From an uncultured Actinomycetota bacterium (GTDB lineage: Bacteria > Actinomycetota > Actinomycetes > Frankiales > Frankiaceae), in NCBI GenBank assembly GCA_963737695.1, contig CAVTTQ010000008.1, forward strand, positions 23,941-47,940: a DNA stretch of 24,000 bases, written 5' to 3'. Of the stretch, positions 298 to 16,708 are shown in pieces. How positions within the stretch are numbered: position 1 is the first letter of the stretch; each line of letters begins with the position of its first letter. Under the pieces are notes generated by a model. It was not told where the DNA came from. It worked only from the letters and a program-made list of their open reading frames with translations, and ran no database searches. The position numbers were made by a program, and so were the translations under genes.

Positions 298-3120
298 TCA
301 ATCGACCCGTTCGTCCAGTATGAGCATCCGGGCCAGCTCTACCCGCGATCGAATCCCCAGCTTCTGGAAGCTCTTTCCGAGATGGAATTCGACCGTCTTC
401 TCGCTGACGAACAGAGTTTCAGCCACTTCGCGGTTCGAAGACCCGGCCGCCACTGCGCTGGCCACCTGCAATTCGCGGGCGGTGAGGCTGGTCAGGGAGG
501 GTCGGTCGGCGGAGTCGGCGAGTTGCCCACCCGCTGCCCGGATCTCACGTTCGGTCTGCGCGATCCAACCTGACGCGCCCAGGCTGCTGAAAGCGCTCAG
601 GGCCGCGCGCAGCTGGCGAACTGATTCAGTCCGCCGCCGGGTCCGGCGCAGCCTTTCTCCGTAAGCGAGTTGTGTGCGGGCGCGCTCGAAAGGCCAATCC
701 CGGCCGATGGCGAGTGATGCTTCGAAGAGGTCGTCGGCGTCGCCCCCATCACCGTGGGCCGCTGCTAGCGCGAGGCAGCGTTTCAGCCGGATCTGATGGT
801 CGCTCGCAGAAATCAGATCATCGAGTGCGGCGCTCTCGAGAACCTCCTGCGCTTCATCGGAGTGCCCGCACCGGATAAGCGTCTCGGCGAACTCGAGGCT
901 CCAGATCGGCAGGCTCGTGTGCTGGGCCGCCTTTACGTCGTCATCGCGAGCCCGAAAGTGGGTCAGCGCCTGGCGGGGTTGGCCGCGCCCGAGCTCCAGC
1001 AAGCCAAGGGCCCAGCGGGCGTACTCACGCAGGGCTCGGTTGCCGGTGGCCACGCCGATGGCGATCGCTTCAGAGCCATGCGCGATGCAGTCGTCGCTCC
1101 TGCCCTGGGCCGCCTCAATGATGGCGAGATTGGCGAGACAGAAGTTGCGGGCTCCGCCGGTCTCGTCAGCGATGCGCAGCGCCTCGCTGGTCGTCGCGTA
1201 AGAACGCCACCAGCGGTCAGTCCGGAAATCGACCTCGCCGATGCTCGCCAAGGCCACCGGCAGTGCGCTGAGCGCGCCGGCGCTGCGGGCGACCGCGATG
1301 ACCGACTCGTACAGAGTTGTCGCCTCGGGCCAGCAGTCGTAAACGACCAGTCCGCGACCGTAAATCTCGGGGATCCAAGGGTTTTCGAGTGGATTGAGGG
1401 CTGAGAGAACGGGCAGCAGGTCGAGCAGTGACGATCGGATCGCCGCCTTGTGGTTGCCGAATATCTCGGTCGCCGACAGCACGACGCTGCGCACGGGCTC
1501 CGGCGCATGCGCGAAGAGCGGCCCGGATACGAGCTCTCGCCCGATCCGCAGGTCCTCCATGCTGCCCATGAGGACCGCTTCGGCCAGGGCAGCTCCACCT
1601 TGCACGGGGTCGGTGTCACCGATCAGATGAGCCGCTCGCACCGTCGTCTCCAACGCTCCGGGTGCGCCGGTCCAGAACGAAAGCCGACCCTCGATCTGCA
1701 TCGCTCGTGCGACGACCATCGGATCGTCGGCGCCTGACTGCGCCTGCCTTGCCAACGTGATGGCGTCTATGGCGCGGCCCGATTGCTGGGCGTCCAGAGC
1801 CGCCTCGAGGAACCTGACCGCGGCGCGCGCCGGCTCGGGGCTGAGTAGTGCAGCTGCCTCGAAGGCCTTGGCGGCCACGGCGGGCGCCTGCCGCGACCGA
1901 GCGGCATAAGCGAGCTCCTCGACCTCGGCGGCGACCGCTTCGACTGGGCCCGTAGAGGCGGCAACCAGGTGCCAGGCGCGGGCGTCATGTCGGTGGGCCT
2001 GGGTGGAGACGTCAGCCAGGATCTGATGGGCGGCGCGGCGGTCTGCGGCTGAGGCCTCGTGGTAGGCGGACGAGCGGACCAGCGGATGAATGAAGTGGCA
2101 TCGCCCCTCGCTGATCCTGATCAGATCCGCGTCCTCTGCAGGTTCGACGGCCGCAAGCGTGAGTCCGGCGGCGCCAAGGGCCGCTGAAAGGACAGCAACG
2201 TCGCTCGAGTCGCAGGCCGAGGCGATCACCAGGGCACGTCGCGTTGGCTCGGGGAGCGAGAGCAGCCTCCGGCCGTACGCTCCGGCGACTTGTCGACCAA
2301 CCGGAATGGGATCCGGGAGTGCGCGTAAGCCACTGCGTTGGTCGCCATCGAGCAGGCGGGCGGCCTCGATCAGGGCGAGGGGATTGCCCGCCGTTCTGGT
2401 GTGCAGCTCCAACGTGACCGCAGGAGACAGGGTTACGCCGGCGACATGCCCAAGCAGCGTGTCGACCTCGTCCAGCTCGATGCCTTCCAGGTCGAGGCGC
2501 TCGAGCCCATGCAGGTGCTCGAGCTTTTCGTCTCTGCTGGCGAGCACCATCAACACCCGCTCCGCCTCCAGCCGCCGGGCGAGGAAAAGCAATGCCTCGG
2601 CTGAGGCTGGATCGAGCCAGTGCACGTCGTCGATCAGGATCAGTAAGGGCCGGTATTCAGCCTCTGCCGAAATCAGGCTCAGGACGCCGACGTAGACCGA
2701 GAAGCGTTCCACAGCGGTGCCTTCGGTGAGGGCCAGCGCCGAGCGCAGCGAATCCTGCTGCGCCGTCGGCAGCTCGTCGATCCGGTGAATCAGCGGACGC
2801 AGCAGACCGACGAGCCCGGCGAAGGGCAGCCCCTGCTCGAATTCGGAGCCCGAGGTCCGAAGGACGCTGAAGCCGGAACTTCGCGCGCCGATCTCGGCCA
2901 GCAGCGAGGTCTTTCCCGACCCCGGCTCGCCCACCAAGGCCAGCACGCAGCTCCTGCCCTGCAGCGCTCGTTCGGCCAGCTCATCCAGCTGATCCAGCTC
3001 GTCGGATCGCCCGACTAGGCCCGCGCCGGCGGAAGCTCCCGTCGGGACAGGTGGCACCCGCCTTGCACCCACCCGTGCTCCGATCGGCCGACGCTGGAGC
3101 TGTCGATCATAGGCGTACAT
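298..3120 (-). CDS. LAL-family transcriptional regulator (N-terminal AAA/STAND-like ATPase, central helical/TPR-like region, C-terminal LuxR-type HTH)
   Basis: 940-aa ORF. Walker A is GEPGSGKT and Walker B-like is LLILIDDVHWLD. A long Ala/Leu-rich helical repeat region follows. The C-terminus LTARELQVASAVAAGSSNREVAETLFVSEKTVEFHLGKSFQKLGIRSRVELARM is a classic LuxR/GerE HTH. Start is uncertain: ATG 3120 has no SD, whereas GTG 3072 has GGAG 6 nt upstream. Confidence 0.9.
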   Translation of the reverse strand: MYAYDRQLQRRPIGARVGARRVPPVPTGASAGAGLVGRSDELDQLDELAERALQGRSCVLALVGEPGSGKTSLLAEIGARSSGFSVLRTSGSEFEQGLPFAGLVGLLRPLIHRIDELPTAQQDSLRSALALTEGTAVERFSVYVGVLSLISAEAEYRPLLILIDDVHWLDPASAEALLFLARRLEAERVLMVLASRDEKLEHLHGLERLDLEGIELDEVDTLLGHVAGVTLSPAVTLELHTRTAGNPLALIEAARLLDGDQRSGLRALPDPIPVGRQVAGAYGRRLLSLPEPTRRALVIASACDSSDVAVLSAALGAAGLTLAAVEPAEDADLIRISEGRCHFIHPLVRSSAYHEASAADRRAAHQILADVSTQAHRHDARAWHLVAASTGPVEAVAAEVEELAYAARSRQAPAVAAKAFEAAALLSPEPARAAVRFLEAALDAQQSGRAIDAITLARQAQSGADDPMVVARAMQIEGRLSFWTGAPGALETTVRAAHLIGDTDPVQGGAALAEAVLMGSMEDLRIGRELVSGPLFAHAPEPVRSVVLSATEIFGNHKAAIRSSLLDLLPVLSALNPLENPWIPEIYGRGLVVYDCWPEATTLYESVIAVARSAGALSALPVALASIGEVDFRTDRWWRSYATTSEALRIADETGGARNFCLANLAIIEAAQGRSDDCIAHGSEAIAIGVATGNRALREYARWALGLLELGRGQPRQALTHFRARDDDVKAAQHTSLPIWSLEFAETLIRCGHSDEAQEVLESAALDDLISASDHQIRLKRCLALAAAHGDGGDADDLFEASLAIGRDWPFERARTQLAYGERLRRTRRRTESVRQLRAALSAFSSLGASGWIAQTEREIRAAGGQLADSADRPSLTSLTARELQVASAVAAGSSNREVAETLFVSEKTVEFHLGKSFQKLGIRSRVELARMLILDERVD

Positions 3121-3272: not shown

Positions 3273-3917
3273 ATGAGGATCCACGTCGCTCGCAAAGAAT
3301 CAAAGTCCGTGTCTGGGCATGACCGTCGACCCCGTTCCGCCCTGCTGCTCCTGGCTGCCGCCGCGGCCATAGCTCCGATCGTCGCGGTGCCCGCGGCGAA
3401 CGCGGCCGACTCCGGGTCGAACACCTCGACCGTCGAGATCACCCCGGCTCTGGTCAGGTCGATCACCGTCAGCCCCGGCAACAGTTCCTTTGGCCGGTGT
3501 ATCGACACCGCCACACTGCAGAGTCTGACCACGCTCAATGTGCCCGGGGGTAGCTGTCGTTTGGGTACTCCGGCCGCAGAGGACTACGTCACTGTCACGA
3601 ACGGACCCGTCCCGGCTCGCGTTCTTGTGAACGGTGCTGAGGCGCGGCCGGCAACTGGTACAGGAGCGGGCTGGGTCTTGGGTCAGTCTCGCGACACCGA
3701 CCAGTTCACGGAAGAGAGCTACAACCGCGCAGCCTCTCCGGGCGGCGTGTTTGTCCTTCCGAACCCGGGGTGCGACGTCGCGTTCAACAATGCCCTCGAT
3801 TGCCAGGCCGACGCGAACGCCACGAGTGACGAGGGGCTGGAGGTGAGTGCCCCGACAAGCTCAACCGCGACAGCTTCGACGTTCACCATCACGACGACCT
3901 GGACGGCGGCTCCGTAG
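3273..3917 (+). CDS. secreted paralog 1 of an unnamed four-Cys, TTTWTAAP-terminated protein family
   Basis: ATG 3273 is preceded by GGGGGAG. The same RBS/start context (MRI..V) is seen in paralog 3; the track start GTG 3258 is 5 codons upstream. The signal peptide ends AANAA. The protein aligns over its full length with the next two ORFs and ends APTSSTATASTFTITTTWTAAP. Confidence 0.85.
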   Translation: MRIHVARKESKSVSGHDRRPRSALLLLAAAAAIAPIVAVPAANAADSGSNTSTVEITPALVRSITVSPGNSSFGRCIDTATLQSLTTLNVPGGSCRLGTPAAEDYVTVTNGPVPARVLVNGAEARPATGTGAGWVLGQSRDTDQFTEESYNRAASPGGVFVLPNPGCDVAFNNALDCQADANATSDEGLEVSAPTSSTATASTFTITTTWTAAP

Positions 3918-3920
3918 CCA

Positions 3921-4526
3921 GTGAAGATCGAATTGCGCCGACACCCTGTCGTTTTGCTCGTGGCTGCTATGGGGACCGTGTCGTTGCTCGCCATGCCTGC
4001 GGCCAACGCCGCTAGCAGTGGCACCAACACCTCGACGGTTGAGGTCACCCCCACCGAGGTTCGTTCGGTCACGGTGTCACCCGGCACGGGGACCTTCGCG
4101 ACGTGCCGGGATCCTGATGACCAGGTGACGATCGGCACGCTTACGATCCCCGGCGGTCATTGCTTCCTGGGTAGTCCGACTCAAGAGGAATTCGTGACCG
4201 TCACCAATGGTCCTGTCGCCGGCCGGATCTTGATCAACGGTGAGGCGGCGCGGCCTTCTGACGGCGGGACGCCCTGGGCGCTCGGCGCGTCGCCCGCGGC
4301 TGATGTTTTCACCGAGACGAGCCACAACACGGTGGACGGCGGCGACGACCAGTCACTGACCACGACACCTGTCTGCGACGTGACTTACTCACCCGATGTG
4401 GACGGCCTTTGCACCGCCAGCCCCAACGAGCCCAACGACGAATTCCTGCGGATCGATGCGCCGACAAGTTCCACGGATTCGTCGTCGACCTTCACCGTCA
4501 CGACCACGTGGACGGCCGCGCCGTGA
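3921..4526 (+). CDS. secreted paralog 2 of the same family
   Basis: GTG start lies 3 nt after the paralog 1 stop. The signal peptide is MKIELRRHPVVLLVAAMGTVSLLAMPAANAA. It has the same conserved motifs and four Cys, and ends APTSSTDSSSTFTVTTTWTAAP. Confidence 0.85.
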   Translation: MKIELRRHPVVLLVAAMGTVSLLAMPAANAASSGTNTSTVEVTPTEVRSVTVSPGTGTFATCRDPDDQVTIGTLTIPGGHCFLGSPTQEEFVTVTNGPVAGRILINGEAARPSDGGTPWALGASPAADVFTETSHNTVDGGDDQSLTTTPVCDVTYSPDVDGLCTASPNEPNDEFLRIDAPTSSTDSSSTFTVTTTWTAAP

Positions 4527-4539
4527 GGTCGGGGGAGTT

Positions 4540-5208
4540 ATGAGGATCAGCGTTGTTCACGATGAGGCGGTGCACGTCAGCGGTCATGCACGCAGAACTC
4601 GTCGACTGCTGCTGGCCGCAGCCGCCGCGGCGCTGGCCTCGTTGGCCATCGCGACAAGCGCCAGCGCGGCGGACAGCGGTGCCAACACATCGACCGTCAA
4701 CATCTCGCCGCCTCTGATTCGCTCGATCACGCTGGCGCTCAGCGTCGACGTGCCGGGGGGCTCGTTCGGTCTCTGTGTCGACCCGGAGACTCACCTTGCT
4801 GACTTGACCACACTCACCATTCCCGATGGCATCTGCACCCTCAGCCGTGGGGGTGGTGGCCAGGATTACGTCCGCATCACGAACGGGCCGGTTCCAGGTC
4901 ACATCAATGTCAACGGCGGGGAGGCGGTGCCCACGTCAGGCGAAGGAAGCGGTTGGGCGCTTGGCACCAGCGCGGGACCGGACGTCTATACGGAAAAGTC
5001 CGCGGACCACGACGGCGAGGCGCTCCTGCCCTTCTCCCTTACCGCTTCACCCTCGTGTGATGGCTCCATCCACCCCGCGGTTGCCGACCTGTGCGCGGTC
5101 GCCGCCGATGAGGAGAACGATGAGCTCGTCCAAATCGGAGCGCCCACCAGTTCAACCGCGACGGCCTCGAACCTCACCGTCACCACGACCTGGACCGCCG
5201 TCCCGTAA
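4540..5208 (+). CDS. secreted paralog 3 of the same family
   Basis: The track ORF 4396-5208 overlaps paralog 2. The real start is ATG 4540 (GGGGGAG-tt-ATG), 13 nt after the paralog 2 stop, giving MRISVVHDEAVHVSGHARRTRRLLLAAAAAALASLAIATSASA. It ends APTSSTATASNLTVTTTWTAVP. Confidence 0.85.
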   Translation: MRISVVHDEAVHVSGHARRTRRLLLAAAAAALASLAIATSASAADSGANTSTVNISPPLIRSITLALSVDVPGGSFGLCVDPETHLADLTTLTIPDGICTLSRGGGGQDYVRITNGPVPGHINVNGGEAVPTSGEGSGWALGTSAGPDVYTEKSADHDGEALLPFSLTASPSCDGSIHPAVADLCAVAADEENDELVQIGAPTSSTATASNLTVTTTWTAVP

Positions 5209-5837
5209 TGGCAGCCCGCTCTTCACTCCGCTCGGTCGCAGTAGTCCTTGGCCTGACCCTCCTGGCGGCGATCGTGACGCCGGCGGCGGCCGCTCACGCC
5301 GCTGCCGGCGTCGGGGTCGGGGCGGCGCCGATTGAGGCGAAAGGCGAGCTGACCGCGGCCTCTTCGGTGGTGTTGCCGTCCCTGTACGTGGTGAACACCG
5401 GCACCGAGCCATCCACGTACGGAATTCGGGTTCAGCGGATCGGGAAAACCAGCGGGACGCCCGTGCCGACATCGTGGGTGACCGTCACTCCCGCCACCCT
5501 CGCGCTCAAGCCGAAGGCCGGCAGGTGGGTGAAAGTGTCCTTGCAGATCCCGGCTGGAGCTGCCAGCGGTTCCTACACGAGCAATCTCGTCGCCGGCACC
5601 GTCGCCGGCGGACAGGCCACCGGGACCAAGGCCCAGTTCGGCGCCCAGGCTGCGACCCAGCTGTCCTTCAAGGTCGGCGCTCCAGGGTCGGCAGCCGCGG
5701 TTGAATCCAAGCCCGATACGTCATCGAACGGTGGGGATCTCGGACCCTGGTGGGCCTGGGTGGGTGGCTTGGCTCTAGTCGTCGCTGTGATCGCGATCTG
5801 GAAGAGCGGGATCAGGGTGAAGGTCACGCGAAGCTGA
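5208..5837 (+). CDS. signal-peptide protein with one Ig-like/beta-sandwich-type domain and a C-terminal TM anchor (DUF916/chaperone-like by architecture only)
   Basis: TAATG overlap with the paralog 3 stop indicates translational coupling. The signal peptide ends AAAHAAA. The beta-rich core is LPSLYVVNTGTEPSTYGIRVQRI...VTVTPATLALKPKAGRWVKVSLQIPAGAASGSYTSNLVAG. The C-terminal anchor is PWWAWVGGLALVVAVIAIW followed by KSGIRVKVTRS. Confidence 0.8.
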   Translation: MAARSSLRSVAVVLGLTLLAAIVTPAAAAHAAAGVGVGAAPIEAKGELTAASSVVLPSLYVVNTGTEPSTYGIRVQRIGKTSGTPVPTSWVTVTPATLALKPKAGRWVKVSLQIPAGAASGSYTSNLVAGTVAGGQATGTKAQFGAQAATQLSFKVGAPGSAAAVESKPDTSSNGGDLGPWWAWVGGLALVVAVIAIWKSGIRVKVTRS

Positions 5838-7214: not shown

Positions 7215-7817
7215 TCAGACTTTGCCGTGCAATTCCTCGGCGATCTGCTTGCCTTGGGCGGGGGTTACGTAGGTGAAGCCGCCGATCTTGACGTAGGTGT
7301 CACCGAACAATGCGCCGTAGCTGGCGAATGCGCTCGCTCCGACTGAGCCTGCGTTTCCCTTGGGGTCAGGGGTCGAGAACGCTTCATCGCCCACGCCGGA
7401 CACCGAGTCGGGCGCGTGACTGACCGTCTTCAGCGCCTCGACGTCGGCGTCGTAGCCAATCTTTCCGCCATGGGTGGTCACGGAGATCTGGAGGAGGGTC
7501 CCGAGAGCACCGGTGTAATCGCAGCTGAAAATGACGCCCTCTACGTCGCCCGGCTTAACCGCGGTAAAGGTGGTGCCGGTGATCTGCGAGGCTGCTGCTG
7601 CCGGAAGCGCGGTGCACACGTCGAATGCCTTCTTATTGCCAGTAGAAGTTCCAGTGCTCGAGCCACCGCCCGGCACGGCAGAAAGCACCGCCTCTGGTTT
7701 TGTCGTACCACTGCTCGATCCGCCCGAGGCCGTCTTGGATCCACTCGAACACGCAGCAGTGGTGATGGCGACAAGCGCTAGTGAGACAACTACGGCCGAC
7801 GCCGTGGGAATTCGCAT
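7215..7817 (-). CDS. secreted lipoprotein (DUF3558-like by composition), function unknown
   Basis: ATG 7817 is preceded by AAGGAG. MRIPTASAVVVSLALVAITTAAC carries a lipobox, followed by a Ser/Gly/Thr linker and a two-Cys globular domain. The track start 7916 is an upstream extension. Confidence 0.75.
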   Translation of the reverse strand: MRIPTASAVVVSLALVAITTAACSSGSKTASGGSSSGTTKPEAVLSAVPGGGSSTGTSTGNKKAFDVCTALPAAAASQITGTTFTAVKPGDVEGVIFSCDYTGALGTLLQISVTTHGGKIGYDADVEALKTVSHAPDSVSGVGDEAFSTPDPKGNAGSVGASAFASYGALFGDTYVKIGGFTYVTPAQGKQIAEELHGKV

Positions 7818-8083
7818 TAATGCTCCTTGAGATTGAGAAGCGGCCCGTACCTGCCGCTTTGCCGATAATGCGCGGAGTCGATCTGAAAGTGAGAGCAAGT
7901 GTCGATGAGCCGACAATTACCTGTCACCCGCCTGTCTTCGGCGCCAGTTGTTTTGCCATTGCGCACATTTCATGTGCATCACATATAAGACGAACACCTT
8001 GTACGAACGATCGTCCGGTCTCAAAGATCCGCCGCCGGGATCGAAGATTCAGCGCCACATCCCGTCAGCTGGCTCCTGAATCC

Positions 8084-8626: not shown

Positions 8627-8639
8627 TGTTCTGGTTCAG

Positions 8640-8703
8640 GACATCGGAATGGGGTGTCTCACGACATCGGAATAGCGTGTCGCAGGTCTTCGGAATGGCT
8701 GCC
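8640..8703 (+). repeat. subterminal direct repeats inside the left IS end (about 23-nt period, CGGAAT core)
   Basis: GACATCGGAATGGGGTGTC (8640-8658), GACATCGGAATAGCGTGTC (8663-8681) and a degenerate third copy GGTCTTCGGAATGGCTGCC (8685-8703). The right end carries TTGGAAT once. These are plausible transposase-binding sites. Confidence 0.5.
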
Positions 8704-8720: not shown

Positions 8721-9903
8721 ATGTCGAAGCGTCGCCTGGTCATCACTGCCGTACTGGCCGGCCAGTCCCAATCCGAGGTGGCCCGTACCTACGGCGTCTC
8801 GCAGGGCTGGATCAGCAAGCTCATGGCCCGTCATCGGGCCGAGGGTGAGGCCGCGTTCGAGCCGCGCTCACGTGCTCCTGCGTCCAGCCCGGCAGCGACC
8901 CCGGCTCAGACCGTCGACCTGGTGCTGCGGCTGCGTAAGCAGCTGCGTGAGTCCGGTCTGGATGCCGGCGCCGACACCATCGGCTGGCACCTGGCCCACC
9001 ACCACGCCACCGTCCTGTCGCGGGCCACGATCAACCGGATCCTCGTCCGGGCCGGTGCCGTCACACCCGCCCCGTCAAAACGTCCCAAGTCCTCCTACAT
9101 CCGGTTCGAAGCCGACCAGCCCAACGAGACCTGGCAGTCCGACTTCACCCACTACCCGCTCACAGGCGGCACCGACTGCGAGATCCTGAGCTGGCTGGAC
9201 GACTGCTCCCGTTACGCGCTTTCGGTCACCGCCCACGCCCGGGTCACCGGCCCGGTCGTACTCGCCACCTTCCGCAAAACCATTGCCACCTATGGCGTTC
9301 CAGCCTCCACGCTGACCGACAACGGGATGGTGTTCACCACCCGCTTCGCCGGCGGCCGCGGCGGCCGCAACCACCTCGAACACGAACTACACAAGCTCAA
9401 CATCACCCAGAAAAACGGCCACCCCAACCATCCACAAACCCAAGGCAAGGTCGAACGGTTCCAGCAGACGCTGAAAAAATGGCTGCGCGCCCAACCCGAA
9501 CAGCCCACCACCATCACCCAGCTGCAAACCCTCCTCGACCGGTTCGCCGGCGACTACAACCAGCGCCGCCCCCACCGATCCCTGCCGCACCACGCACCCG
9601 GCCACCATCTACCAGTCACTGCCCAAAGCCACCCCCAGCAGCAACCGCAGCGCCGACACCCACGACCGCACCCGCCGCGACAAGATCGACAAAGCCGGCA
9701 GCGTCACCCTCCGGGTCGCCGGCCAACTCCGCCACATCGGCGTCGGCCGAACCTACGCCCGAACCGACGTCATCCTGCTCGTCCAAGACCTCCACGTCAC
9801 CGTCATCAACGCCGCCACCGGCGAGATCCTGCGCGACCTCACCATCGACCCACGACGCGACTACCAACCCACCGGCCGACCACCCGGACCCACCAAAAAA
9901 TAG
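8721..9903 (+). pseudogene. IS481-family transposase, interrupted by one +1 frame change near 9597
   Basis: The N-terminal HTH (LAGQSQSEVARTYGVSQGWISKLMARH) and the integrase core (WQSDFTHY...DNGMVFT...HPQTQGKVERFQQTLKKWL...YNQRRPHRSL) lie in the frame of 8721. The canonical C-terminus, TIYQSLPKATPSSNRSADTHDRTRRDKIDKAGSVTLRVAGQLRHIGVGRTYARTDVILLVQDLHVTVINAATGEILRDLTIDPRRDYQPTGRPPGPTKK-stop (TAG 9901-9903), lies in the next frame. Deleting one C from CCC 9597-9599 restores ...PHHAPATIYQ.... The 424-aa track ORF (to 9995) is the out-of-frame Pro/Arg-rich read-through. Confidence 0.85.
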
Positions 9904-9931
9904 GCCGAACCTGCAGATCGCAGGTCCGGCC
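9903..9931 (+). terminator. stem-loop overlapping the transposase stop codon, inside the right IS end
   Basis: GGCCGAACCTGC (9903-9914) pairs with GCAGGTCCGGCC (9920-9931): 12 bp with one mismatch and a 5-nt loop. There is no U tract. Confidence 0.3.
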
Positions 9932-9956
9932 TATTCCAATGTCCCGAGACATCACA

Positions 9957-9972
9957 TTTGTCGGGATGACAG
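9957..9972. repeat. right copy of the 16-bp target-site duplication TTTGTCGGGATGACAG (overlaps the tRNA 3' end)
   Basis: Identical to 8611-8626 and contiguous with the tRNA body. Confidence 0.85.
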
Positions 9973-10034
9973 GATTTGAACCTGCGACCCCCTGACCCCC
10001 AGTCAGGTGCGCTACCAAGCTGCGCCACATCCCG
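9961..10034 (-). tRNA. tRNA-Pro (anticodon GGG), 74 nt, no encoded CCA
   Basis: The reverse complement is CGGGATG TG GCGC AGCTTGGTA GCGC A CCTGA CTGGGGG TCAGG GGGTC GCAGG TTCAAAT CCTGT CATCCCG A. It has a perfect 7-bp acceptor stem, a 4-bp D stem, a 5-bp anticodon stem with loop C-U-GGG-G-G, and a T arm with TTCAAAT. Confidence 0.92.
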
Positions 10035-10093: not shown

Positions 10094-12145
10094 TTAGCCG
10101 GCACGACCTCCGGTAGCTCCGGTCCGGGCAAATCCGCCGCCCCCGGTCCGTCCGGTGCCGCCGGTGAGTCCGCCGCCCAGCCCGCCTCCGAGACCGCCGC
10201 CGCGGCCGGTCAGAGAGGTCGACCCGCTGGTCGGTAGTGGGGTGCTGAGGTTCGCCAGCGCTACGTGATCGCCGGCTTTGAGCCCCGACGTGACTTGCGT
10301 GAGCGTGGCGTCGGAAGCTCCTACGACGACGATCTTCCGCTGGGCTTTGCCTCCGGACAGCACGGTGACGGTGTGCAGGGCTCCGAAGGTCGTGACGGCT
10401 GACGTCGGCACCGTCACGACTCCCGAGACGCTCTTGACGAGGATTGAGACGTTGGCGCCCGATCCCGAGTAGAGACCGCTGCTATCGAGGCTGATCGTGA
10501 CGGGGTAGGTGGCGGAGTTGGTTGCCGAACTCGCGGTCGACGAGCTGCTCGAGCTTGCGGTCGACGCAGCGCTGGAGGAGGCACCGGAGCGTCCCGACCC
10601 AGTGGTGCCCGTCGACCCGGTGGTCGTGGTCGATACGGGCAGGAGCCCGATTGCGGTGACCGTCCCGTGAAGGGGTTTTGTGGTGCCGTCAGGGGTGACG
10701 ATCGCGGTGGCTCCGACGTGGACCTTCTCCAGATCCAGATCTCCCACAGTGGTCGTCACCTCATCGACGCCGGGACCGATCACAGTTACCGCGGTCGACT
10801 GGGCACTTGCCGAAGACCCCGGCGTGATGCTGACCTGAGCAACGGTGCCTGCCAGCGGGCTGACGAGCGTTGTCTGGTTGACCGACTCTGCGGCGACGAA
10901 CACCGCTGCGGTGTCGGCGTCGACCGTTGCCTGATCAAGAGCGAGCATGTCGGCAGTAACCAGCGTCCCGCCGCCGGATCCTCCACCCGAGCCGCTGCTG
11001 GTACGAGAAGATCCGCTGGAACTAAAGGACGATGAGCCGCTGGAACCGGTTGTTGAGGCTCCGCCGCGTGAATGGTCGCTGGATCCACCGGTGCTGGGGC
11101 TCGCGGAGGGTGTGGGGGTCGGCGTGGGAGTAGGCGTGGAGGACGATGACTCTGCTGCCGCAGTAAGTTGCGCAACAGCGTTCGTCAGCGTGGTCTCGTC
11201 GGCGCTCACCGCCTTCTGAGCGGTGGATACGGACTGTTGATCGGCCAGGATCTTGGTCAGCAACGCCGTGCATGCGCTGGGATCGGGGGCGGGCGTTCCG
11301 CCTCCAGCGCCAGGTGTCGCAGGTGTGGCGGTCGCTCCCGCCGCAGGCGTGGTCGGCGTGGCCGCCGGCTTGAAATTCTGGAGTGAGGAAATAAGCGAAC
11401 CGCACGTGCTGGTGCCGCTGTTCAGGTCGGCAGTCACGGTGGCGAGCAGGTTGTCGACCGTTTGCTGATCGGTGAGCAGCTTTGCCTGCGCGGCCGTGAC
11501 GGCAGCCTTCGCCGCGGCGATGGCGCCGGAATCACCGGACCCGCCTGCCGCGCCGCCGCCGCCCCCGGAGCGGCCTCCGGTGAGCGGCACCGCCGCCCCG
11601 ACGTCGGCCGGCCCGAGGGAGCTGGACGACGAACCACTACCACTGGAATTGCTGGAAACGGTGGTGCCGTCGGCCTGCGCCTGGGTGTCAGAAGCCAGCT
11701 TCGCCTGCGCAGTAGCAAGCGTCGATTGCGCGGAATCCAGCTGGGACTGCAGGCTGGTCTTGTCGATGGTGGCAAGGGTCTGACCGACCTTGACCTTTTC
11801 GCCGACCGTCACCGGCACCGTCGCGACCGTCCCGCTCACCGGGAAGGCCACCGCCGCCTGATTGATCGGCTGGACCGTGCCGTAGGAGTTGAGCGTTTGG
11901 TCGACGTCACCCATCTTGACCGTCGCCGAACGGTAGCTCGCCGCGCTCGAGCCGCTGGCCGCCCAGATCCCGCCGGCGGCAACCAGGATGAGGACTGCGA
12001 CCACGACGATCACGGTCAGTCTTCGCGGTCGCCGGCCGAGTCGTTTCGGCTTCCCGGCCACCGGTTCAGCAGCCGCGGATGCCGCCGGCTCGGGCTCCTC
12101 GGAGGGCTCTCGGAGCAGGAAGGTCAGCTCCGTCTGGTCTGTCAT
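10094..12145 (-). CDS. HlyD/MFP-type periplasmic adaptor subunit no. 2, with giant low-complexity insertions and a Gly-rich C-terminal tail
   Basis: 683 aa, with an N-terminal TM (LTVIVVVAVLILVAAGGIWAA). Lipoyl-like motifs are VAFPVSGTVATVPVTVGEKVKVGQTLATID and LVSPLAGTVAQVSI, and there are coiled-coil segments. The start ATG overlaps the upstream stop (ATGA at 12142-12145). Confidence 0.85.
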   Translation of the reverse strand: MTDQTELTFLLREPSEEPEPAASAAAEPVAGKPKRLGRRPRRLTVIVVVAVLILVAAGGIWAASGSSAASYRSATVKMGDVDQTLNSYGTVQPINQAAVAFPVSGTVATVPVTVGEKVKVGQTLATIDKTSLQSQLDSAQSTLATAQAKLASDTQAQADGTTVSSNSSGSGSSSSSLGPADVGAAVPLTGGRSGGGGGAAGGSGDSGAIAAAKAAVTAAQAKLLTDQQTVDNLLATVTADLNSGTSTCGSLISSLQNFKPAATPTTPAAGATATPATPGAGGGTPAPDPSACTALLTKILADQQSVSTAQKAVSADETTLTNAVAQLTAAAESSSSTPTPTPTPTPSASPSTGGSSDHSRGGASTTGSSGSSSFSSSGSSRTSSGSGGGSGGGTLVTADMLALDQATVDADTAAVFVAAESVNQTTLVSPLAGTVAQVSITPGSSASAQSTAVTVIGPGVDEVTTTVGDLDLEKVHVGATAIVTPDGTTKPLHGTVTAIGLLPVSTTTTGSTGTTGSGRSGASSSAASTASSSSSSTASSATNSATYPVTISLDSSGLYSGSGANVSILVKSVSGVVTVPTSAVTTFGALHTVTVLSGGKAQRKIVVVGASDATLTQVTSGLKAGDHVALANLSTPLPTSGSTSLTGRGGGLGGGLGGGLTGGTGRTGGGGFARTGATGGRAG

Positions 12146-13140
12146 CCGGCGCCGCCCGAAGCACCCGCGCCCTGACGGAATCTGCCGAAGCCCCCGCCGA
12201 AGCCGAGTTGCGTGCAGCCACTCGAGGTCGGTGTGCTCAACGCGATCGTGCGAGCCGTGACCGCCCCGGTGTCATCTGTGGTTCCGATGGCCGTCGCGCA
12301 GAGGCCGACCTTCAGGTCAGCCTTGGTCGCGGTGGCTTCCTCGCGGAATGTGGTGCTGGGCGTCGTGGTGACGGTGACCGTCGAGGTCTTACCGGCTCGA
12401 GTGCTCTTCACCTCGAACGTTCCGCTGCCAACCGAGGCCACCGTGCCGAATGCCGCACGTCCAAAGCCCGCGCCGCCGCGTCCGGCGCCGAAGCTCGGCG
12501 ATCCACTCGGGCGGACCCGCCCGGACGGACGGCCGGAGGGGAACGCGCCGCCCGGCCCGCGTCCGGTGGTGGCGACAGTGCACGTACCAGAGGTCTTCGT
12601 GATGATCACCGAAGTTGCGGTGAGGGCGGTGACCGGCGACGGGGAGGCGGATGGCGTGGTGCTCGGAGTGGTGGACGCTGCCGCGGTGGCAGTGACGCAG
12701 TCGCCCGGCTTCAGCGCTGCCGCAGTCGTGGTCAGTGTCTGGCTGAACGTCGTCGTGCCGGTGTAGTTGACGGTGGTTTGGCTGGAGGTCCCTTGCACGA
12801 AGATGTTGCTGGGATTGACCTGCGAGATCTTTCCGGTCGTGCCCGGCCTGGCCCCGCCACCGGCGGCGCCTCCTGCCGAGCCACCCGCTGAGCCACCGGC
12901 GCTGGCGCCGCCGTTCTGCGGTGTCGCAGCGGAGGATTTCGTCGAAGAGCTGCTGCTGCCGCAGGCGGCAGCCAGCACGACGACACCAAGGGCGACGGCG
13001 GGCACTTGCAGCCAGCGGCGGCGGGCATGCAAGTCGACTGACCGGGACGTCGGGATGTTCACCGTCGAACTCGCTTTCGTGACATGAGCAGATGAATCGC
13101 ACACGGATGTGGGCGGACGAAACACGGCGGGCAACCTCAT
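12142..13140 (-). CDS. lipoprotein with two DUF5666-like beta domains and a Gly-rich tail
   Basis: The lipobox is VVLAAACGSSSS. The repeated module is GKISQVNPSNIFVQG...TTFSQT...LKPGDCVTATA and GTVASVGSGTFEVKS...TTFREE...LKVGLCATAIG. Start is uncertain. ATG 13140 overlaps the permease stop (ATGA), but the first ~35 codons show weak coding periodicity. GTG 13062 or TTG 13032 would give a normal-length signal peptide. Confidence 0.75.
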   Translation of the reverse strand: MRLPAVFRPPTSVCDSSAHVTKASSTVNIPTSRSVDLHARRRWLQVPAVALGVVVLAAACGSSSSSTKSSAATPQNGGASAGGSAGGSAGGAAGGGARPGTTGKISQVNPSNIFVQGTSSQTTVNYTGTTTFSQTLTTTAAALKPGDCVTATAAASTTPSTTPSASPSPVTALTATSVIITKTSGTCTVATTGRGPGGAFPSGRPSGRVRPSGSPSFGAGRGGAGFGRAAFGTVASVGSGTFEVKSTRAGKTSTVTVTTTPSTTFREEATATKADLKVGLCATAIGTTDDTGAVTARTIALSTPTSSGCTQLGFGGGFGRFRQGAGASGGAG

Positions 13141-14369
13141 TCGGAGCGCAGGGCGTCGATGGGGGCGAGCCGGGCCGCGCGGCTTGCGGGATATACGCCG
13201 AAGATGACGCCGATAGCGACGGCGACGGCGATGGCGCCGACCGCGGCCAATCCGGAAATCGTGATCGGCTGGTTGACAACGGAGGGCAGTACGGCGGCGC
13301 CGATAACGCCGAGCACGACACCAAGTAGGCCACCGGCAAGTCCTAGTACCGATGACTCCACCAGGAACTGACGACGGATCACGCGCGGAGGAGCGCCGAG
13401 AGCCTTGCGCAGGCCGATCTCCTTGATGCGCTCGGTCACCGAGACCAACATGATGTTCATGACGCCGATCCCGCCCACCAGCAGCGAGATCCCGGCGATT
13501 CCGCCGAGCAGGATGGTCAGCGTCTTGTCGACCGAAGTAGCGGTCGTGAGGATCGACTGCTGGCTGGAGATGGAGAAGTCGGCGGCCGTCGCGGTCGTGA
13601 TGGCGTGCGTCGCGAGCAGCTCGGAGTTCGCCTCCTGGTAGGCCGCGGAGAGGGTGTGACGGGAGGCCGCTTCGATGTAGATCGTCGAAACCGACGAGCG
13701 TGAGGTGCCGCCGATGAGCCGGGTCTGCGCCGTCGTGATCGGAACGATCGCGGTGTCGTCCTCATCGGTCGCACTCGAGGAGCCCACGGTGGTCAGCTCA
13801 CCGATGACCTGCATCGGGATGTTGTTGATGGTGACCGTTTGACCGACCGGGTTTGCGCGGCCGAAGAGTTCGGTGGCCGTCTCCGAGCCGAGCACGACCA
13901 CGGAGGCAAGGCTGTCGACATCGTGGCTGTTGATGAACCGGCCCGACGACAGTTGCCGGGCGCGGACCGAGAGCCAATCCGGCTGCGTGCCGACGACGGA
14001 GGTCGTCCAGTTCGAGGTTCCGGCAGTCAGTGACTGAGACGTGGAGACGGTGGGAGCGACCGCCTTGATGTCCGGGGCGACAGTCTTGTTCGACAACGCG
14101 TCCGCATCGCGAACGGTCAGCGTCGAGGCCGATCCGAAGCCGCCCCGAACTCCTGTGCTGCTGGTGGAGCTGCCCGGAGAGACGATGAGCAGGTTGCTGC
14201 CCAGGGCTGCGATCTCACCGCGCACCTTGTTCTGCGCACCTTCGCCGAGCCCCACCGTCAGGATCACGGCGGCGATCCCGATCAGGATCCCGAGCATCGT
14301 CAGGCCGGACCGCAGCCGGTGCGTGCGCACTGCCTCCAGGCCCGTTCGAAGGGTCTCCCACCAGCTCAC
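13137..14369 (-). CDS. ABC transporter permease, MacB/FtsX type (periplasmic MacB_PCD domain plus C-terminal FtsX 3-TM bundle)
   Basis: 410 aa. N-terminal TM is LRSGLTMLGILIGIAAVILTV, followed by a large extracytoplasmic domain and a C-terminal ERIKEIGLRKALGA motif with three TM helices. The GTG start overlaps the ATPase stop (GTGA). Confidence 0.9.
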   Translation of the reverse strand: MSWWETLRTGLEAVRTHRLRSGLTMLGILIGIAAVILTVGLGEGAQNKVRGEIAALGSNLLIVSPGSSTSSTGVRGGFGSASTLTVRDADALSNKTVAPDIKAVAPTVSTSQSLTAGTSNWTTSVVGTQPDWLSVRARQLSSGRFINSHDVDSLASVVVLGSETATELFGRANPVGQTVTINNIPMQVIGELTTVGSSSATDEDDTAIVPITTAQTRLIGGTSRSSVSTIYIEAASRHTLSAAYQEANSELLATHAITTATAADFSISSQQSILTTATSVDKTLTILLGGIAGISLLVGGIGVMNIMLVSVTERIKEIGLRKALGAPPRVIRRQFLVESSVLGLAGGLLGVVLGVIGAAVLPSVVNQPITISGLAAVGAIAVAVAIGVIFGVYPASRAARLAPIDALRSE

Positions 14370-15127
14370 TGAGCGGCTCCGAGGGCGCCTGGCGCATCCG
14401 CAGAGTTGTTGGCGTCCGGAACCAAGCCACCGTCATGGATTCGCGCGATCCGCCCAGCGCGGCGGGCGACGTCGCCCTCGTGCGTGATCAGGACGATGGT
14501 GCGTCCCGCTTCGTGCAACTCGTCGAGCAACCCGAGCACGTCGTCCGTCGAAACCGAGTCCAGGTTGCCGGTGGGCTCGTCGGCGAGAATCAACGCGGGG
14601 TCGGTCACCAAGGCCCTGGCGACAGCGACTCGCTGCTGCTGGCCGCCGGACAGCTCCGCCGGACGGTGTTCGACGCGGTCCGAGAGCCCGACGCGTTCCA
14701 GCGCCGCCATGGCCCGCGCCTTACGCTCGGGGCGGGAGACTCCGGCGTAGCAAAGCGGCAGTTCGACATTGCGCCACGCGTTAAGCGAAGGCAGCAAGTT
14801 GAACTGCTGGAAGACAAAGCCGATTCGCCGGTTACGGATGTCGGCCAACTCGTCTTCGGACAGCCGGCTCACGTCCTCGCCCGCCAGCAGGTACCGGCCC
14901 TCAGTCGGTACATCGAGACAACCCAAGATGTGCATCAGGGTTGATTTGCCGGAGCCGGACGGACCCATGACCGCCACGTAGTCACCGGTGGAGATCGAAA
15001 GGTCAATTCCTCGCAAGGCTTCGACCGACAGCGTGCCGTTGGTATAGGTCTTGCGAACACCCTCGAGAGCGATGACAGGCAACGGGCCCTCGTGAGTCTG
15101 CGGTGTCTCCGGCGAAAGCGTGGTCAT
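14366..15127 (-). CDS. ABC transporter ATP-binding protein (MacB/LolD-like)
   Basis: Walker [11 protein letters not shown]-loop, signature [15 protein letters not shown], Walker [12 protein letters not shown], and H-loop ITHE. The ATG overlaps the adaptor 1 stop (ATGA). Confidence 0.95.
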
Positions 15128-16461
15128 CCGGCAAGTCCTGTGCGAGCGCCCCCGAAGCCGCCCCCGCCAGTGAAGCCGCTCCCGCCAGTGAAGCCACCCC
15201 CGCCGGTGAAGCCACCCCCACCCGTGAAGCCACCTCCACCGAAGCCGCCCGTGCCGGTTCGCGTCCGGCCGCCGGTTCCGCCGACGCGAGTCACCGGGAC
15301 GATGATCTTGTCGCCGGCCGTGAGCCCTTTGGTGATCTGGGTTTCAAGTCCGGACGCGGTTCCCACCGTCACCGTCGTCTCGGTCTTGCGGCTCCCGTCG
15401 ACAACCGTGACTTTCGGGGTGGAGCCGGAGTAGTGGATCGCGGCTGTCGGCACAGCGAGCACATCTGTCAGCTGCTTGACGATGATCGAGACGTTGGCGC
15501 TCGCGCCGGGGTGGAGCGTCGGCTGCGCGCCGGTGACGGCGATGGTGACGGGGTAGGTCGTCACGCCTGAAGTCGAGGAAGCGATCAGCCCGACTGAGCT
15601 GACGGTGCCGAAGACGGGGGTGGTGCTGCCGTTGGCGGTGATCGTCGCCTGCAGACCGGTCTTCACCGAACCGATCGCGGTGTCATCGACGGTGGCTGCG
15701 ACGGTGAAGTGCACCGGGTCGATCAGCACAACCTGCGCGGTGGATGCGCCGGATGATGTGGTCGAGCTGGCAGCCGACAGCGCACTTGAGGACCCGCCCC
15801 CGCCAAAGCTCCCCGAGCCCCCGGATCCGCCGCCCGACCCGCCGCTGGATGAGCTGGACGAGGAGCTACTTGAGCCCGAGACCTGCTCGCCGACGGTCAG
15901 ATCGACCGACGCGATGGTTCCCGAGAACGGCGCCGTCATCGTCGCTCCGGCGAGCGCCTGCTGGGCATCGGTCACCGAGTTCTGCGCGACCGTAAGCGAT
16001 TGCTGGTCGGCGGTGAGCTGGGCGGCAGAAGCGCCGGCGGTGGTGTCAGTGCTCAACCGGTTTTGCGCGCTCGCCAGGGTCACCTGTGCGTTGGCGACGT
16101 TCGCGGAGAGCGTGGCGCTGGTGATGCTGGCGAGCGACTGGCCTTTGGTCACCTTCTGGCCGGCCGTGACATCGACGGCGGTCACCTGTCCGGCGGAGGC
16201 GAAGCTCATGTCGGCCTCGTTCGCCGACGCGAGAGTGCCGGTCGCCGGGACCGTCTGGGTGATCGTTGTGGTGGCGACGGTTTCGGTCTCGCTGGTTGCT
16301 GTAGCCGCGGACGAGGAACTGCCCGTCAAACCCCAGATGCCCAAGGCGATTGCGGCCACGACGACCACCGAGCCGACGGCGAACCAGGCCTTGTGCCTGA
16401 CCCAGATGCGGTCCTTACTCGGTGTGTCTTCCGGCGAATCGCCGCGCTTGAACAAGCGCAC
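15124..16461 (-). CDS. HlyD/MFP-type periplasmic adaptor subunit no. 1 with a (GGGGFT)n C-terminal tail
   Basis: TM helix is AWFAVGSVVVVAAIALGIWGL. Lipoyl-like motifs are MSFASAGQVTAVDVTAGQKVTKGQSLASI and MTAPFSGTIASVDLTVGEQV, with a coiled-coil hairpin. Start is uncertain: in-frame GTG/TTG at 16479, 16476, 16467, 16461 and 16455. Coding periodicity seems to reach about 16555, where an AGGAGGG-preceded ATG (16558) is out of frame by 1 (see findings). The track start TTG 16644 is unlikely. Confidence 0.85.
   Translation of the reverse strand: MRLFKRGDSPEDTPSKDRIWVRHKAWFAVGSVVVVAAIALGIWGLTGSSSSAATATSETETVATTTITQTVPATGTLASANEADMSFASAGQVTAVDVTAGQKVTKGQSLASITSATLSANVANAQVTLASAQNRLSTDTTAGASAAQLTADQQSLTVAQNSVTDAQQALAGATMTAPFSGTIASVDLTVGEQVSGSSSSSSSSSSGGSGGGSGGSGSFGGGGSSSALSAASSTTSSGASTAQVVLIDPVHFTVAATVDDTAIGSVKTGLQATITANGSTTPVFGTVSSVGLIASSTSGVTTYPVTIAVTGAQPTLHPGASANVSIIVKQLTDVLAVPTAAIHYSGSTPKVTVVDGSRKTETTVTVGTASGLETQITKGLTAGDKIIVPVTRVGGTGGRTRTGTGGFGGGGFTGGGGFTGGGGFTGGSGFTGGGGFGGARTGLAG
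15154..15258 (-). repeat. 18-bp tandem repeat (about 5.5 copies) encoding the FTGGGG repeats of the adaptor 1 tail
   Basis: Plus-strand units are GAAGCCGCCCCCGCCAGT (15154), GAAGCCGCTCCCGCCAGT (15172), GAAGCCACCCCCGCCGGT (15190) and GAAGCCACCCCCACCCGT (15208). Truncated copies follow at 15226 and 15241. Confidence 0.85.
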
Positions 16462-16708
16462 TCCCACGTCTCCCAACACCGCCCGGCCGCGCAGGCGCTC
16501 GGCGTGACTTGACCCGCTTCCGACGATCGCGGCTGACTTGAAGATCGAGTCCTGACATGCGGGTTCCCTCCTAGCACGCTGGGAGTCAGCTGTGAGGTTG
16601 TGTTTCGAGAAGCAATCAATCTTTTTCACATGTTCTGGCGGCAAAACCGCAGCTCGGCCCTACAACAAGAGACGGCCTGAGGTGCGTTGCAACACGCTCG
16701 AAAGCGGA

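Follow-up and report, generated by a model that had tools for sequence, protein, structure and literature searches.

A four-gene module of uncultured soil actinobacteria looks like a distant cousin of Firmicute WxL clusters and chaperone-assisted pili

Introduction

A four-gene operon at 3273-5837 was analysed in a 24,000-nucleotide stretch of DNA from an uncultured Actinomycetota bacterium (GenBank assembly GCA_963737695.1, contig CAVTTQ010000008.1, positions 23,941 to 47,940), which is called the window below and whose own numbering is used throughout. The first three genes encode the paralogous subunits P1, P2 and P3, and the fourth encodes their partner P4; subunit and partner are two new protein families in a conserved module. 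It is proposed that P4 captures the subunits through β-strand complementation and that a WxL-like, non-covalent surface platform results, a proposal on which our confidence is evenly divided. The module looks like a cell-surface assembly system of uncultured soil actinobacteria that is a distant cousin of Firmicute WxL clusters and chaperone-assisted pili, and it is best read as the actinobacterial equivalent of both WxL/WxLIP clusters and the Pam pili, which work without an usher. Its mechanism is deduced from weak profile similarities together with the predicted folds, the synteny and the fusions of genes.

Donor-strand pili assembled with a PapD-like chaperone have long been regarded as a Gram-negative speciality. 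The first usher-less system with a membrane-anchored chaperone was reported in 2026 from bacteria of the candidate phyla radiation (CPR), and strand insertion in the WxL/WxLIP clusters of Firmicutes is so far a prediction only. If the proposal made here is true, soil actinobacteria would supply a third, sequence-unrelated-looking case of the same two-component logic, a hint that it is old and widely distributed among bacteria that lack an outer membrane. With its four genes and single regulator the module would also be a compact system open to testing, the subunit and the partner would constitute two new protein families, and a possible new extended-signal-peptide motif would be flagged.

Results and Discussion

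Organization of the operon

All four genes lie on the plus strand. P1 (3273..3917) is a 214-aa precursor, P2 (3921..4526) has 201 aa when read from a GTG codon, P3 (4540..5208) has 222 aa and P4 (5208..5837) has 209 aa. For P2 the GTG at 3921 is used here, the shorter version of the gene caller starting at ATG 3969. The assignments of P1-P3 rest on their open reading frames (ORFs) and the paralog alignment, to which an AlphaFold2 (AF2) model is added for P1; that of P4 rests on its ORF, an AF2 model, Foldseek and a profile search. Because the gaps between P1 and P2 and between P2 and P3 measure only 3 and 13 nt, and because the ATG of P4 overlaps the stop codon of P3 by 1 nt (TAATG), an arrangement of translational coupling, P1-P4 are taken as one operon. 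A Shine-Dalgarno sequence, GGGGGAG, stands immediately 5' of the P1 ATG at 3273. P1 and P2 are in frame across the P1 stop codon (the read-through span is 3405-4523), and when the two are joined, all homologues align onto the second copy. The window has a GC content of about 67%, and all related loci lie between 63 and 67%.

Divergently oriented on the minus strand (298..3120) is the gene of a 940-aa regulator of the LAL type (large ATP-binding regulators of the LuxR family), composed of an AAA_16 ATPase domain (Pfam, 3.8e-22), TPR repeats and a LuxR/GerE helix-turn-helix (HTH) domain (GerE, 1.6e-18), which would control the four-gene operon. A regulator with a GerE domain also adjoins the subunit genes in the related loci L002, L003 and L006 and on the P0009 contig, and in L002 and L003 it has an AAA_16 domain as well. 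The intergenic region between the regulator gene and P1 (3121..3272, 152 nt) is the presumed promoter/operator; a sigma-70 consensus was looked for there and not found, and its repeats are weak only, with no convincing operator among them.

P1-P3 are old duplicates under purifying selection

The original prediction, which had been made from the sequence of the window, described 3273-5208 as three tandem secreted paralogs, and the ORFs and their end-to-end alignment (45-51% pairwise amino acid identity) bear this out. Its list of shared motifs was recovered with trivial deviations only (INGEAARP in P2, and L-D-C instead of L-C in P1), as were its signal peptides ending in A-x-A-A (found as A-N-A↓A or A-S-A↓A) and the lack of an LPXTG motif, a lipobox or a transmembrane (TM) helix in P1-P3. 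The four Cys residues that it had noted as positionally conserved (C76, C95, C167 and C177 in P1 numbering) are invariant in an alignment of 13 homologues and at least 90% conserved in one of 98 family members. The C-terminal end that it had called invariant holds in all three paralogs, which stop exactly after TTTWTA(A/V)P; in P1 this strand is TITTTWTAAP (3885..3914, plus strand), identified from the paralog and family alignments, from co-variation and from hhalign. In both alignments the first and the last strand are the best-conserved parts of the subunits, the first being SGSNTSTVEITP of mature P1 (3411..3446, plus strand). The mature proteins are of about 17 kDa with a pI of about 4.1 and a Ser plus Thr content of 22-29%, and they are almost free of Lys (0, 0 and 1 per roughly 170 residues within 3405-5205, P1 having none).

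The three copies share 55-58% of their nucleotides, with saturation at synonymous sites (pS about 0.65, dS about 1.5); dN/dS is 0.28-0.32, and GC3 (0.75-0.77) exceeds both GC1 and GC2. P2 shares 66% identity with its ortholog, the first paralog of L002 (8620-9210 of that locus), and P1 shares 69% with the homologue P0004; since these values exceed the identities within the window, the duplication is older than the split of these organisms. P1-P3 are old duplicates under purifying selection, as had been suggested originally.

The subunit family

P1, P2 and P3 each match the hidden Markov model (HMM) of the subunit family with E values of 1e-48 to 1e-57. The remark that they belong to no nameable family agrees with the Pfam and NCBIfam scans, in which P1-P3 have no match at E<=10; this includes the models for WxL (PF13731), SCPU (PF05229) and TasA/camelysin (PF12389), the three families to which a relation had been considered. 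The same scans of 13 and of 98 family members gave nothing usable, the WxL model again having no hit at E<=10 in the 13, and the subunit profile found noise only (Tex101, Tri1) among the PDB sequences. A word-indexed search of 5.8 billion proteins returned 13 subunit relatives, and a profile of 98 sequences again returned 13, none of them annotated by Pfam. An exhaustive HMMER profile search of 1.84 billion representatives returned at least 380 clusters, defined at 50% identity, with E<=1e-3, and 314 of them reach E<=1e-10; it follows that the family exists, has a moderate size and carries no annotation. Pattern scans of genome and of metagenome contigs found only one and two loci, respectively, the 98-member alignment being too diverse for a search pattern. 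All sources are metagenome assemblies, and the one record that carries a name is an uncultured Acidimicrobiaceae metagenome-assembled genome (MAG).

This metagenomic origin is what could be said for the view that the ORFs arose by chance in a high-GC genome or are duplicates in decay. Against it stand the dN/dS of about 0.3 at saturated dS, the excess of GC3 over GC1 and GC2, the occurrence of the family in at least 380 clusters with conserved synteny, and confident AF2 models. Selection and family evidence together effectively refute this view, and we give it practically no weight.

In the locus of the Acidimicrobiaceae MAG (L006, 5316-7222) one subunit copy and the P4 gene are both apparently split by frameshifts, for which decay or an assembly error is possible. 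The same locus adjoins a large ORF followed by an ATPase-like ORF, a pair that by appearance resembles the IstA/IstB pair of IS21-type elements.

Linkage and fusion of the subunits with P4

When the loci were scanned with the subunit and P4 family HMMs, a P4-family gene adjoined the subunit genes in every locus with enough flanking sequence (9/9), with one to three subunit copies and in either gene order. In addition to this obligatory linkage, P4 and a subunit are fused in one chain in four independent representatives of 50% clusters (P0088, P0103, P0121 and P0133). These fusions start with a signal peptide, a P4-type immunoglobulin-like (Ig) domain and a TM helix; the basic motif comes next, then another hydrophobic segment, which contains a lipobox-like LAAC or LAGC, and finally the subunit domain. 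Adjacency and fusions together are strong evidence for a physical partnership of P4 and the subunits, and the charges of the two are complementary, the subunits being acidic and the ectodomain of P4 (5301-5741) basic, with a pI of 9.8 and 8 Lys in 147 residues. The original framing as three stand-alone proteins was incomplete and had missed the coupled gene P4, the divergent regulator and an N-terminal motif described below.

Other architectures occur in the family. In the large members P0043, P0054 and P0106 the domain forms the C-terminus and is preceded by propellers or other domains; in P0043 and P0054 these are YncE-like and Vgb-lyase β-propellers, and the domain of both begins at VRSVTVSP, thus without the N-terminal strand. 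Another branch (L015; P0132, P0209-P0216) has a single subunit with an N-terminal TM or lipid anchor and a single P4.

The propeller fusions could also be read in another way, namely that P1-P3 are independent secreted ligand- or carbohydrate-binding modules, small enzymes or inhibitors, and that P4 is a co-regulated, mechanistically unrelated surface Ig protein. The GH123 N-terminal domains and CBM86 among the weak Foldseek matches of the subunit model would fit this, and LAL regulators often control catabolic or secondary-metabolite loci, which counts in the same direction. We consider it very unlikely in view of the P4 adjacency, the gene fusions and the complementary charge; moreover, conservation in the subunits peaks in the strands at the extreme N- and C-terminus and not in a pocket, and neither a catalytic motif nor a match to a known CBM family was found in the Pfam and NCBIfam scans.

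Two lipoprotein genes were noted near the modules. One, on the minus strand of the window (7215-7916), encodes a predicted lipoprotein of 233 aa with the lipobox ...TTAAC and no Pfam match; the other encodes a 237-aa lipoprotein directly after the partner gene of L002 (11382-12095) and has no apparent relation to the first.

Predicted fold of P4

The AF2 model of P4 (42 sequences, pLDDT 83.8) begins with a signal-peptide helix. This leads into an Ig domain of nine strands, whose F-G loop is modelled with low confidence, and a disordered linker then connects the domain to a TM helix and a short basic tail. The signal peptide is of the Sec type. The Ig domain comprises residues 35-156 (5310-5675) and is PapD-like in the Foldseek comparison of the model; the TM helix comprises residues 181-200 (5748-5807), and the cytoplasmic tail GIRVKVTRS (5808-5834) is read from the sequence, all three features lying on the plus strand. 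Foldseek found 133 matches in the PDB at E<=1e-3. Nearly all of the top 50 (E 2.5e-6 to 1.7e-4) are either chaperones of chaperone-usher systems (Caf1M, DraB, FaeE, FimC, PapD, SfaE, CupB2, CfaA and CsuC) or eukaryotic PapD-like/ASH domains. The best-conserved parts of P4 are the G strand (AAT.L.F.V) and the N-terminal GVGVGA.P.

A search with the P4 profile against 177,635 PDB sequences gave a different best match, the WxLIP protein EfmWxLIP1 (9i25_C and 9i1y_A; E 0.0064-0.0071), in which both WxLIP Ig domains are touched. Structures of EfmWxLIP1 have been solved both alone and together with a 'WxL domain surface protein' (PDB 9i25 and 9i1y). A direct hhalign comparison of the P4 profile with seven WxLIPs gave a weak match to the DUF916 part (P 0.0065).

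Predicted fold of the subunits and co-variation

From the 13-sequence alignment, AF2 predicts P1 as an all-β domain of eight strands with a mean pLDDT of 78, and of 84-94 across most of the mature domain, in which the conserved N-terminal strand lies outside any sheet. Foldseek matches to the PDB are weak (best E 2.6e-3, target-normalised template modelling score (TM score) 0.44-0.52), and the list is dominated by subunits of donor-strand filaments, including FimG, CfaB, CsuA/B, Caf1, FimA, PapA/H, the TasA fibre 8aur and the Sulfolobus thread, besides the GH123 and CBM86 domains mentioned above. Two adjacent products thus appear, in independent models, to resemble both partner classes of chaperone-assisted pili, P4 clearly and the subunit weakly. 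The earlier hunch that the subunits recall donor-strand pilins gains from the PapD-like fold of P4 and from these weak pilin matches; homology was not established, and the Pfam model of SCPU, the specific relation that had been named, gave no match.

Mean-field direct coupling analysis (mfDCA) of 169 sequences gave plausible strand couplings, with V106-W210 as the strongest pair and Y150-E190, R62-L97, E55-V90/L97 and S52-F73 as further ones. The analysis couples the N-terminal strand to the strands 73-78 and 90-97 and cannot separate cis from trans pairing of that strand.

Proposed mechanism

We propose that P1-P3 are exported through long RR-containing signal peptides, which would be cleaved after A-x-A, and that they fold into small, acidic, Lys-poor β-sandwiches with two predicted disulfides. 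P4, a basic PapD-like and WxLIP-like Ig domain on a C-terminal TM helix, would capture them at the outer face of the membrane. The capture would most likely proceed by β-strand complementation, in which either the F-G loop and G strand of P4 or the N-terminal strand of the subunits completes a neighbouring sandwich; the conservation of the P4 G strand and N-terminus and of the end strands of the subunits is consistent with such strand-mediated contacts. The product would be a surface platform of the WxL/WxLIP kind, possibly a short heteromeric stalk, and in other family members the same C-terminal domain may carry the β-propellers as 'heads'.

The main rival makes the module an usher-less, Pam-like donor-strand-exchange pilus, in which P4 is only a transient membrane-anchored chaperone and the N-terminal SGxNTSTVxV strands link P1-P3 head to tail into a heteromeric polymeric fibre, with the strand-less β-propeller fusions as tip adhesins and the N-terminally membrane-tethered relatives as base subunits. 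The top matches of the subunit model are pilins and other donor-strand filament subunits, those of P4 are pilus chaperones, and the conserved N-terminal strand, unpaired in the P1 monomer model, resembles in sequence the donor strand of Caf1 followed by its A strand. P0043 and P0054 are without this strand, as are FimH-type tip adhesins, which have no N-terminal extension; the paralogs persist as distinct orthologous lineages in the manner of major and minor pilins; the C-terminal strand is the exact end of every family member; and Pam, TasA and tafi are precedents in monoderms. A fibre is favoured by the pilin-like fold matches, by propeller fusions that have no N-terminal strand and by the persistence of the paralog lineages, whereas the branch with a single TM- or lipid-anchored subunit, which fits a static dimer better, and the P4-subunit fusions, which argue for a stable 1:1 pair, favour a stable pair. 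The fold match of the subunit to pilins is also weak (E around 3e-3), and the couplings of the N-terminal strand do not tell pairing in cis from pairing in trans. We regard the pilus as conceivable, if rather doubtful, and retain the surface platform.

Comparison with WxL/WxLIP clusters

For comparison we used genes from Firmicute plasmids that were accepted by record annotation as WxL domain proteins. A WxL cluster is defined by at least two WxL genes and one WxLIP gene, the latter encoding DUF916/DUF3324 domains and a TM helix (PMC10599100). In a Bacillus cereus plasmid locus (L007) a WxLIP gene comes after three small WxL genes in tandem, a layout identical to that of the three subunit genes and P4. 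In both cases the tandem genes encode small secreted proteins of acidic pI with a signal peptide and a single all-β domain of about 170 aa, large relatives carry this domain C-terminally behind passenger domains, and the neighbouring gene encodes a basic product that starts with a signal peptide and continues with an Ig-like domain to a C-terminal TM helix with a basic tail. An acidic pI is general in small WxL proteins; WxLIPs are basic in Lactiplantibacillus plantarum and Listeria and acidic in Enterococcus (PMC9772566, PMC10599100).

The likeness extends to the two Trp motifs. Ten small WxL proteins have the consensus ...VQVxDxRGTGAGWxL... and ...YxxTLTWxLxDAP at the end, and the present family has ...AVPSDxGTxWTL... 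and ...FTxTxTWTAVP at the end; in both, a proximal W-x-L follows a D/G-T-rich turn and a distal ...(F/Y)-x-T-x-T-W-x-...P stands at the very C-terminus. The proximal W134-x-L136 is at least 90% conserved in the 98 members. An hhalign comparison of these 98 members with the ten WxL proteins gave a score of 25.8 (P 0.0057) over the last 28 columns, where the C-terminal strand of the subunits aligns with the distal WxL motif, and with greedy extension (mact 0.05) both Trp motifs are colinear and in register. The score exceeds those of 150/150 column permutations (mean 10.6, maximum 17.3) and of 150/150 block permutations (maximum 22.8).

Several observations weigh against a WxL-like platform. The distal W210 is conserved at the C-terminal end, yet the Leu position of the motif is Ala (W-T-A), and the hhalign probability is only about 6% for both the subunit-WxL and the P4-WxLIP comparison. 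The four conserved Cys of the present family have no counterpart in the ten aligned Firmicute WxL proteins, the solved WxL chain 9i25_A lies outside the top 50 Foldseek matches of P1, and none of the WxL, DUF916, DUF3324, PapD_N, Fimbrial (PF00419) and SCPU models matches the subunits at E<=10. On the side of the partner, P4 has one Ig domain, not two as in the DUF916 plus DUF3324 arrangement of WxLIPs; the Pfam scan gave only the generic Ig models NPCBM_assoc and FixG_C, weakly, and no match to PF06030 (DUF916), PF11797 (DUF3324) or PapD_N; the match to EfmWxLIP1 runs through 'vP..A..G.Y', an E-F strand pattern generic to NEW3/CARDB-like Ig domains; and the P4 alignment shows no evident counterpart of the conserved Arg/Lys pair with which PapD-type chaperones anchor the carboxylate of the subunit. 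The present locus has no LPXTG gene.

Further differences concern the Trp spacing, which is 76 residues here as against about 106 in small and about 68 in large WxL proteins (PMC9772566), the high-GC actinobacterial host, the LAL-type regulator and the extended N-terminal motif of the precursors. The early hunch of a WxL relation is thus helped by the locus layout, the in-register hhalign alignment and the EfmWxLIP1 match, and is weakened by the W-T-A end, the lack of a Pfam match and the position of 9i25_A; homology of the subunits with WxL proteins is plausible, not shown. Hassan et al. found by AF2 prediction that a strand of the WxLIP inserts into a gap of the WxL sandwich, parallel to a long WxL strand (PMC10599100). 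Such an insertion is donor-strand complementation in all but name.

Comparison with pilus and fibre systems

In chaperone-usher systems the fold of P4 matches domain 1 of the chaperone, and P1 weakly matches the pilins; the Thr/Ser-rich N-terminal strand of the subunits and the strictly conserved C-terminal strand that ends the protein add to the likeness. P4 differs from those chaperones in being single-domain and membrane-anchored and in its cleft, where the Arg/Lys pair is not seen, and PapD_N, Fimbrial and SCPU matches are absent. No usher-like ORF exists in the window or in the related loci, and actinobacteria are not known to have an outer membrane.

Pam pili of CPR bacteria are composed of the Ig-like pilins PamA/B, which have paired Cys, and are served by the PapD/FimC-like chaperones PamC/D with a C-terminal TM helix, with no usher (bioRxiv 10.64898/2026.03.03.709456). 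Compared by description and at the level of the fold, the present module shares with them a monoderm-type envelope without an usher, a TM-anchored PapD/FimC-like protein encoded with several Ig-like subunits, and paired Cys in the subunits, and a donor-strand logic has been proposed for Pam. The Pam pilins, however, have two domains (a nine-strand N-terminal domain, a linker strand and a truncated Ig C-terminal domain), whereas P1-P3 have a single domain of about 170 aa; PamC/D have two β-domains and P4 has one; and Pam homologues are reported in CPR only.

Donor-strand fibres are also known from other monoderms as TasA/TapA and as the Tat-fimbriae (tafi) of haloarchaea, the latter having three subunits with RR signal peptides (PMC11821415). 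These are monoderm donor-strand filaments of small secreted β-sandwich subunits, and the TasA fibre 8aur is among the weak fold matches of P1. In contrast to them, the present family does not match Peptidase_M73 (PF12389), no gene of a SipW/TafD-type signal peptidase was found in the window, and a PapD-like TM partner, which those systems do not have, is present. Membership of the module in the WxL, chaperone-usher or Pam systems is not established.

N-terminal motif and signal peptides

The signal peptides of the subunits are unusually long, about 44 aa (3273-3404 in P1, whose residues 1-44 are followed by a mature protein of 170 aa, and 4540-4671 in P3). Ahead of an RR pair and the hydrophobic core, the predicted cytoplasmic N-terminus carries an R-phi-x-phi-x-R motif (phi, hydrophobic residue), which is MRIHVAR in P1 (3273..3293), with the equivalents VKIELRR in P2 (3921-3941) and MRISVVH in P3 (4540-4560), all on the plus strand. 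Family-wide it reads (F/W)(P/S)(Y/F)-R-phi-x-phi-x-R and is found in 35/66 subunit n-regions of at least 12 aa, as compared with 6.1 expected from shuffles. The same motif makes up the cytoplasmic tail of the P4 family, RRSG(F/I)R(L/I)x(V/I)ERR, which 31/42 members match strictly and which is represented here by the tail GIRVKVTRS. In the fused proteins it occurs once, in the loop between the two hydrophobic segments. The motif may be a topology or targeting signal that brings the precursor to its partner.

A bolder view joins these lines and holds that the module forms an usher-independent, chaperone-assisted donor-strand fibre, that P4 is an evolutionary link between WxL/WxLIP, Pam and chaperone-usher systems, and that R-phi-x-phi-x-R is a new targeting signal coupling subunit export to capture; we think this unlikely.

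The RR pair before the hydrophobic core is invariant in P1-P3 (TRRLLL in P3) and is also seen in P0005 (STRRRALILL), and from these sequences export by way of Tat (twin-arginine translocation) may be considered; the Tat-signal models do not match the subunit signal peptides. The subunits may be Tat substrates, yet the mature proteins have two predicted disulfides.

Other features of the window

An ORF at 8721-9995 encodes an IS481-like integrase (rve, rve_3 and HTH domains) that runs into a Pro/Arg/His-rich low-complexity tail. The tail stretch shows a strong strand skew in 9001-10000 (GC skew -0.32, AT skew +0.30), and a tRNA-Pro(GGG) gene encoded on the other strand (9960-10034) overlaps with the ORF. 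Just upstream of the ORF is a 23-bp tandem repeat of 2.8 copies (8636-8699).

The segment 10094-16644 on the minus strand contains a MacB-type ABC exporter module. By coordinate, it comprises an HlyD-like adaptor gene (10094-12145), a 332-aa ORF without a Pfam match (12142-13140), a MacB_PCD/FtsX permease (13137-14369), an ABC ATPase (14366-15127) and a second HlyD-like adaptor gene (15124-16644). The 3' part of this second adaptor gene contains an 18-bp tandem repeat of 4.5-5 copies (15150-15240).

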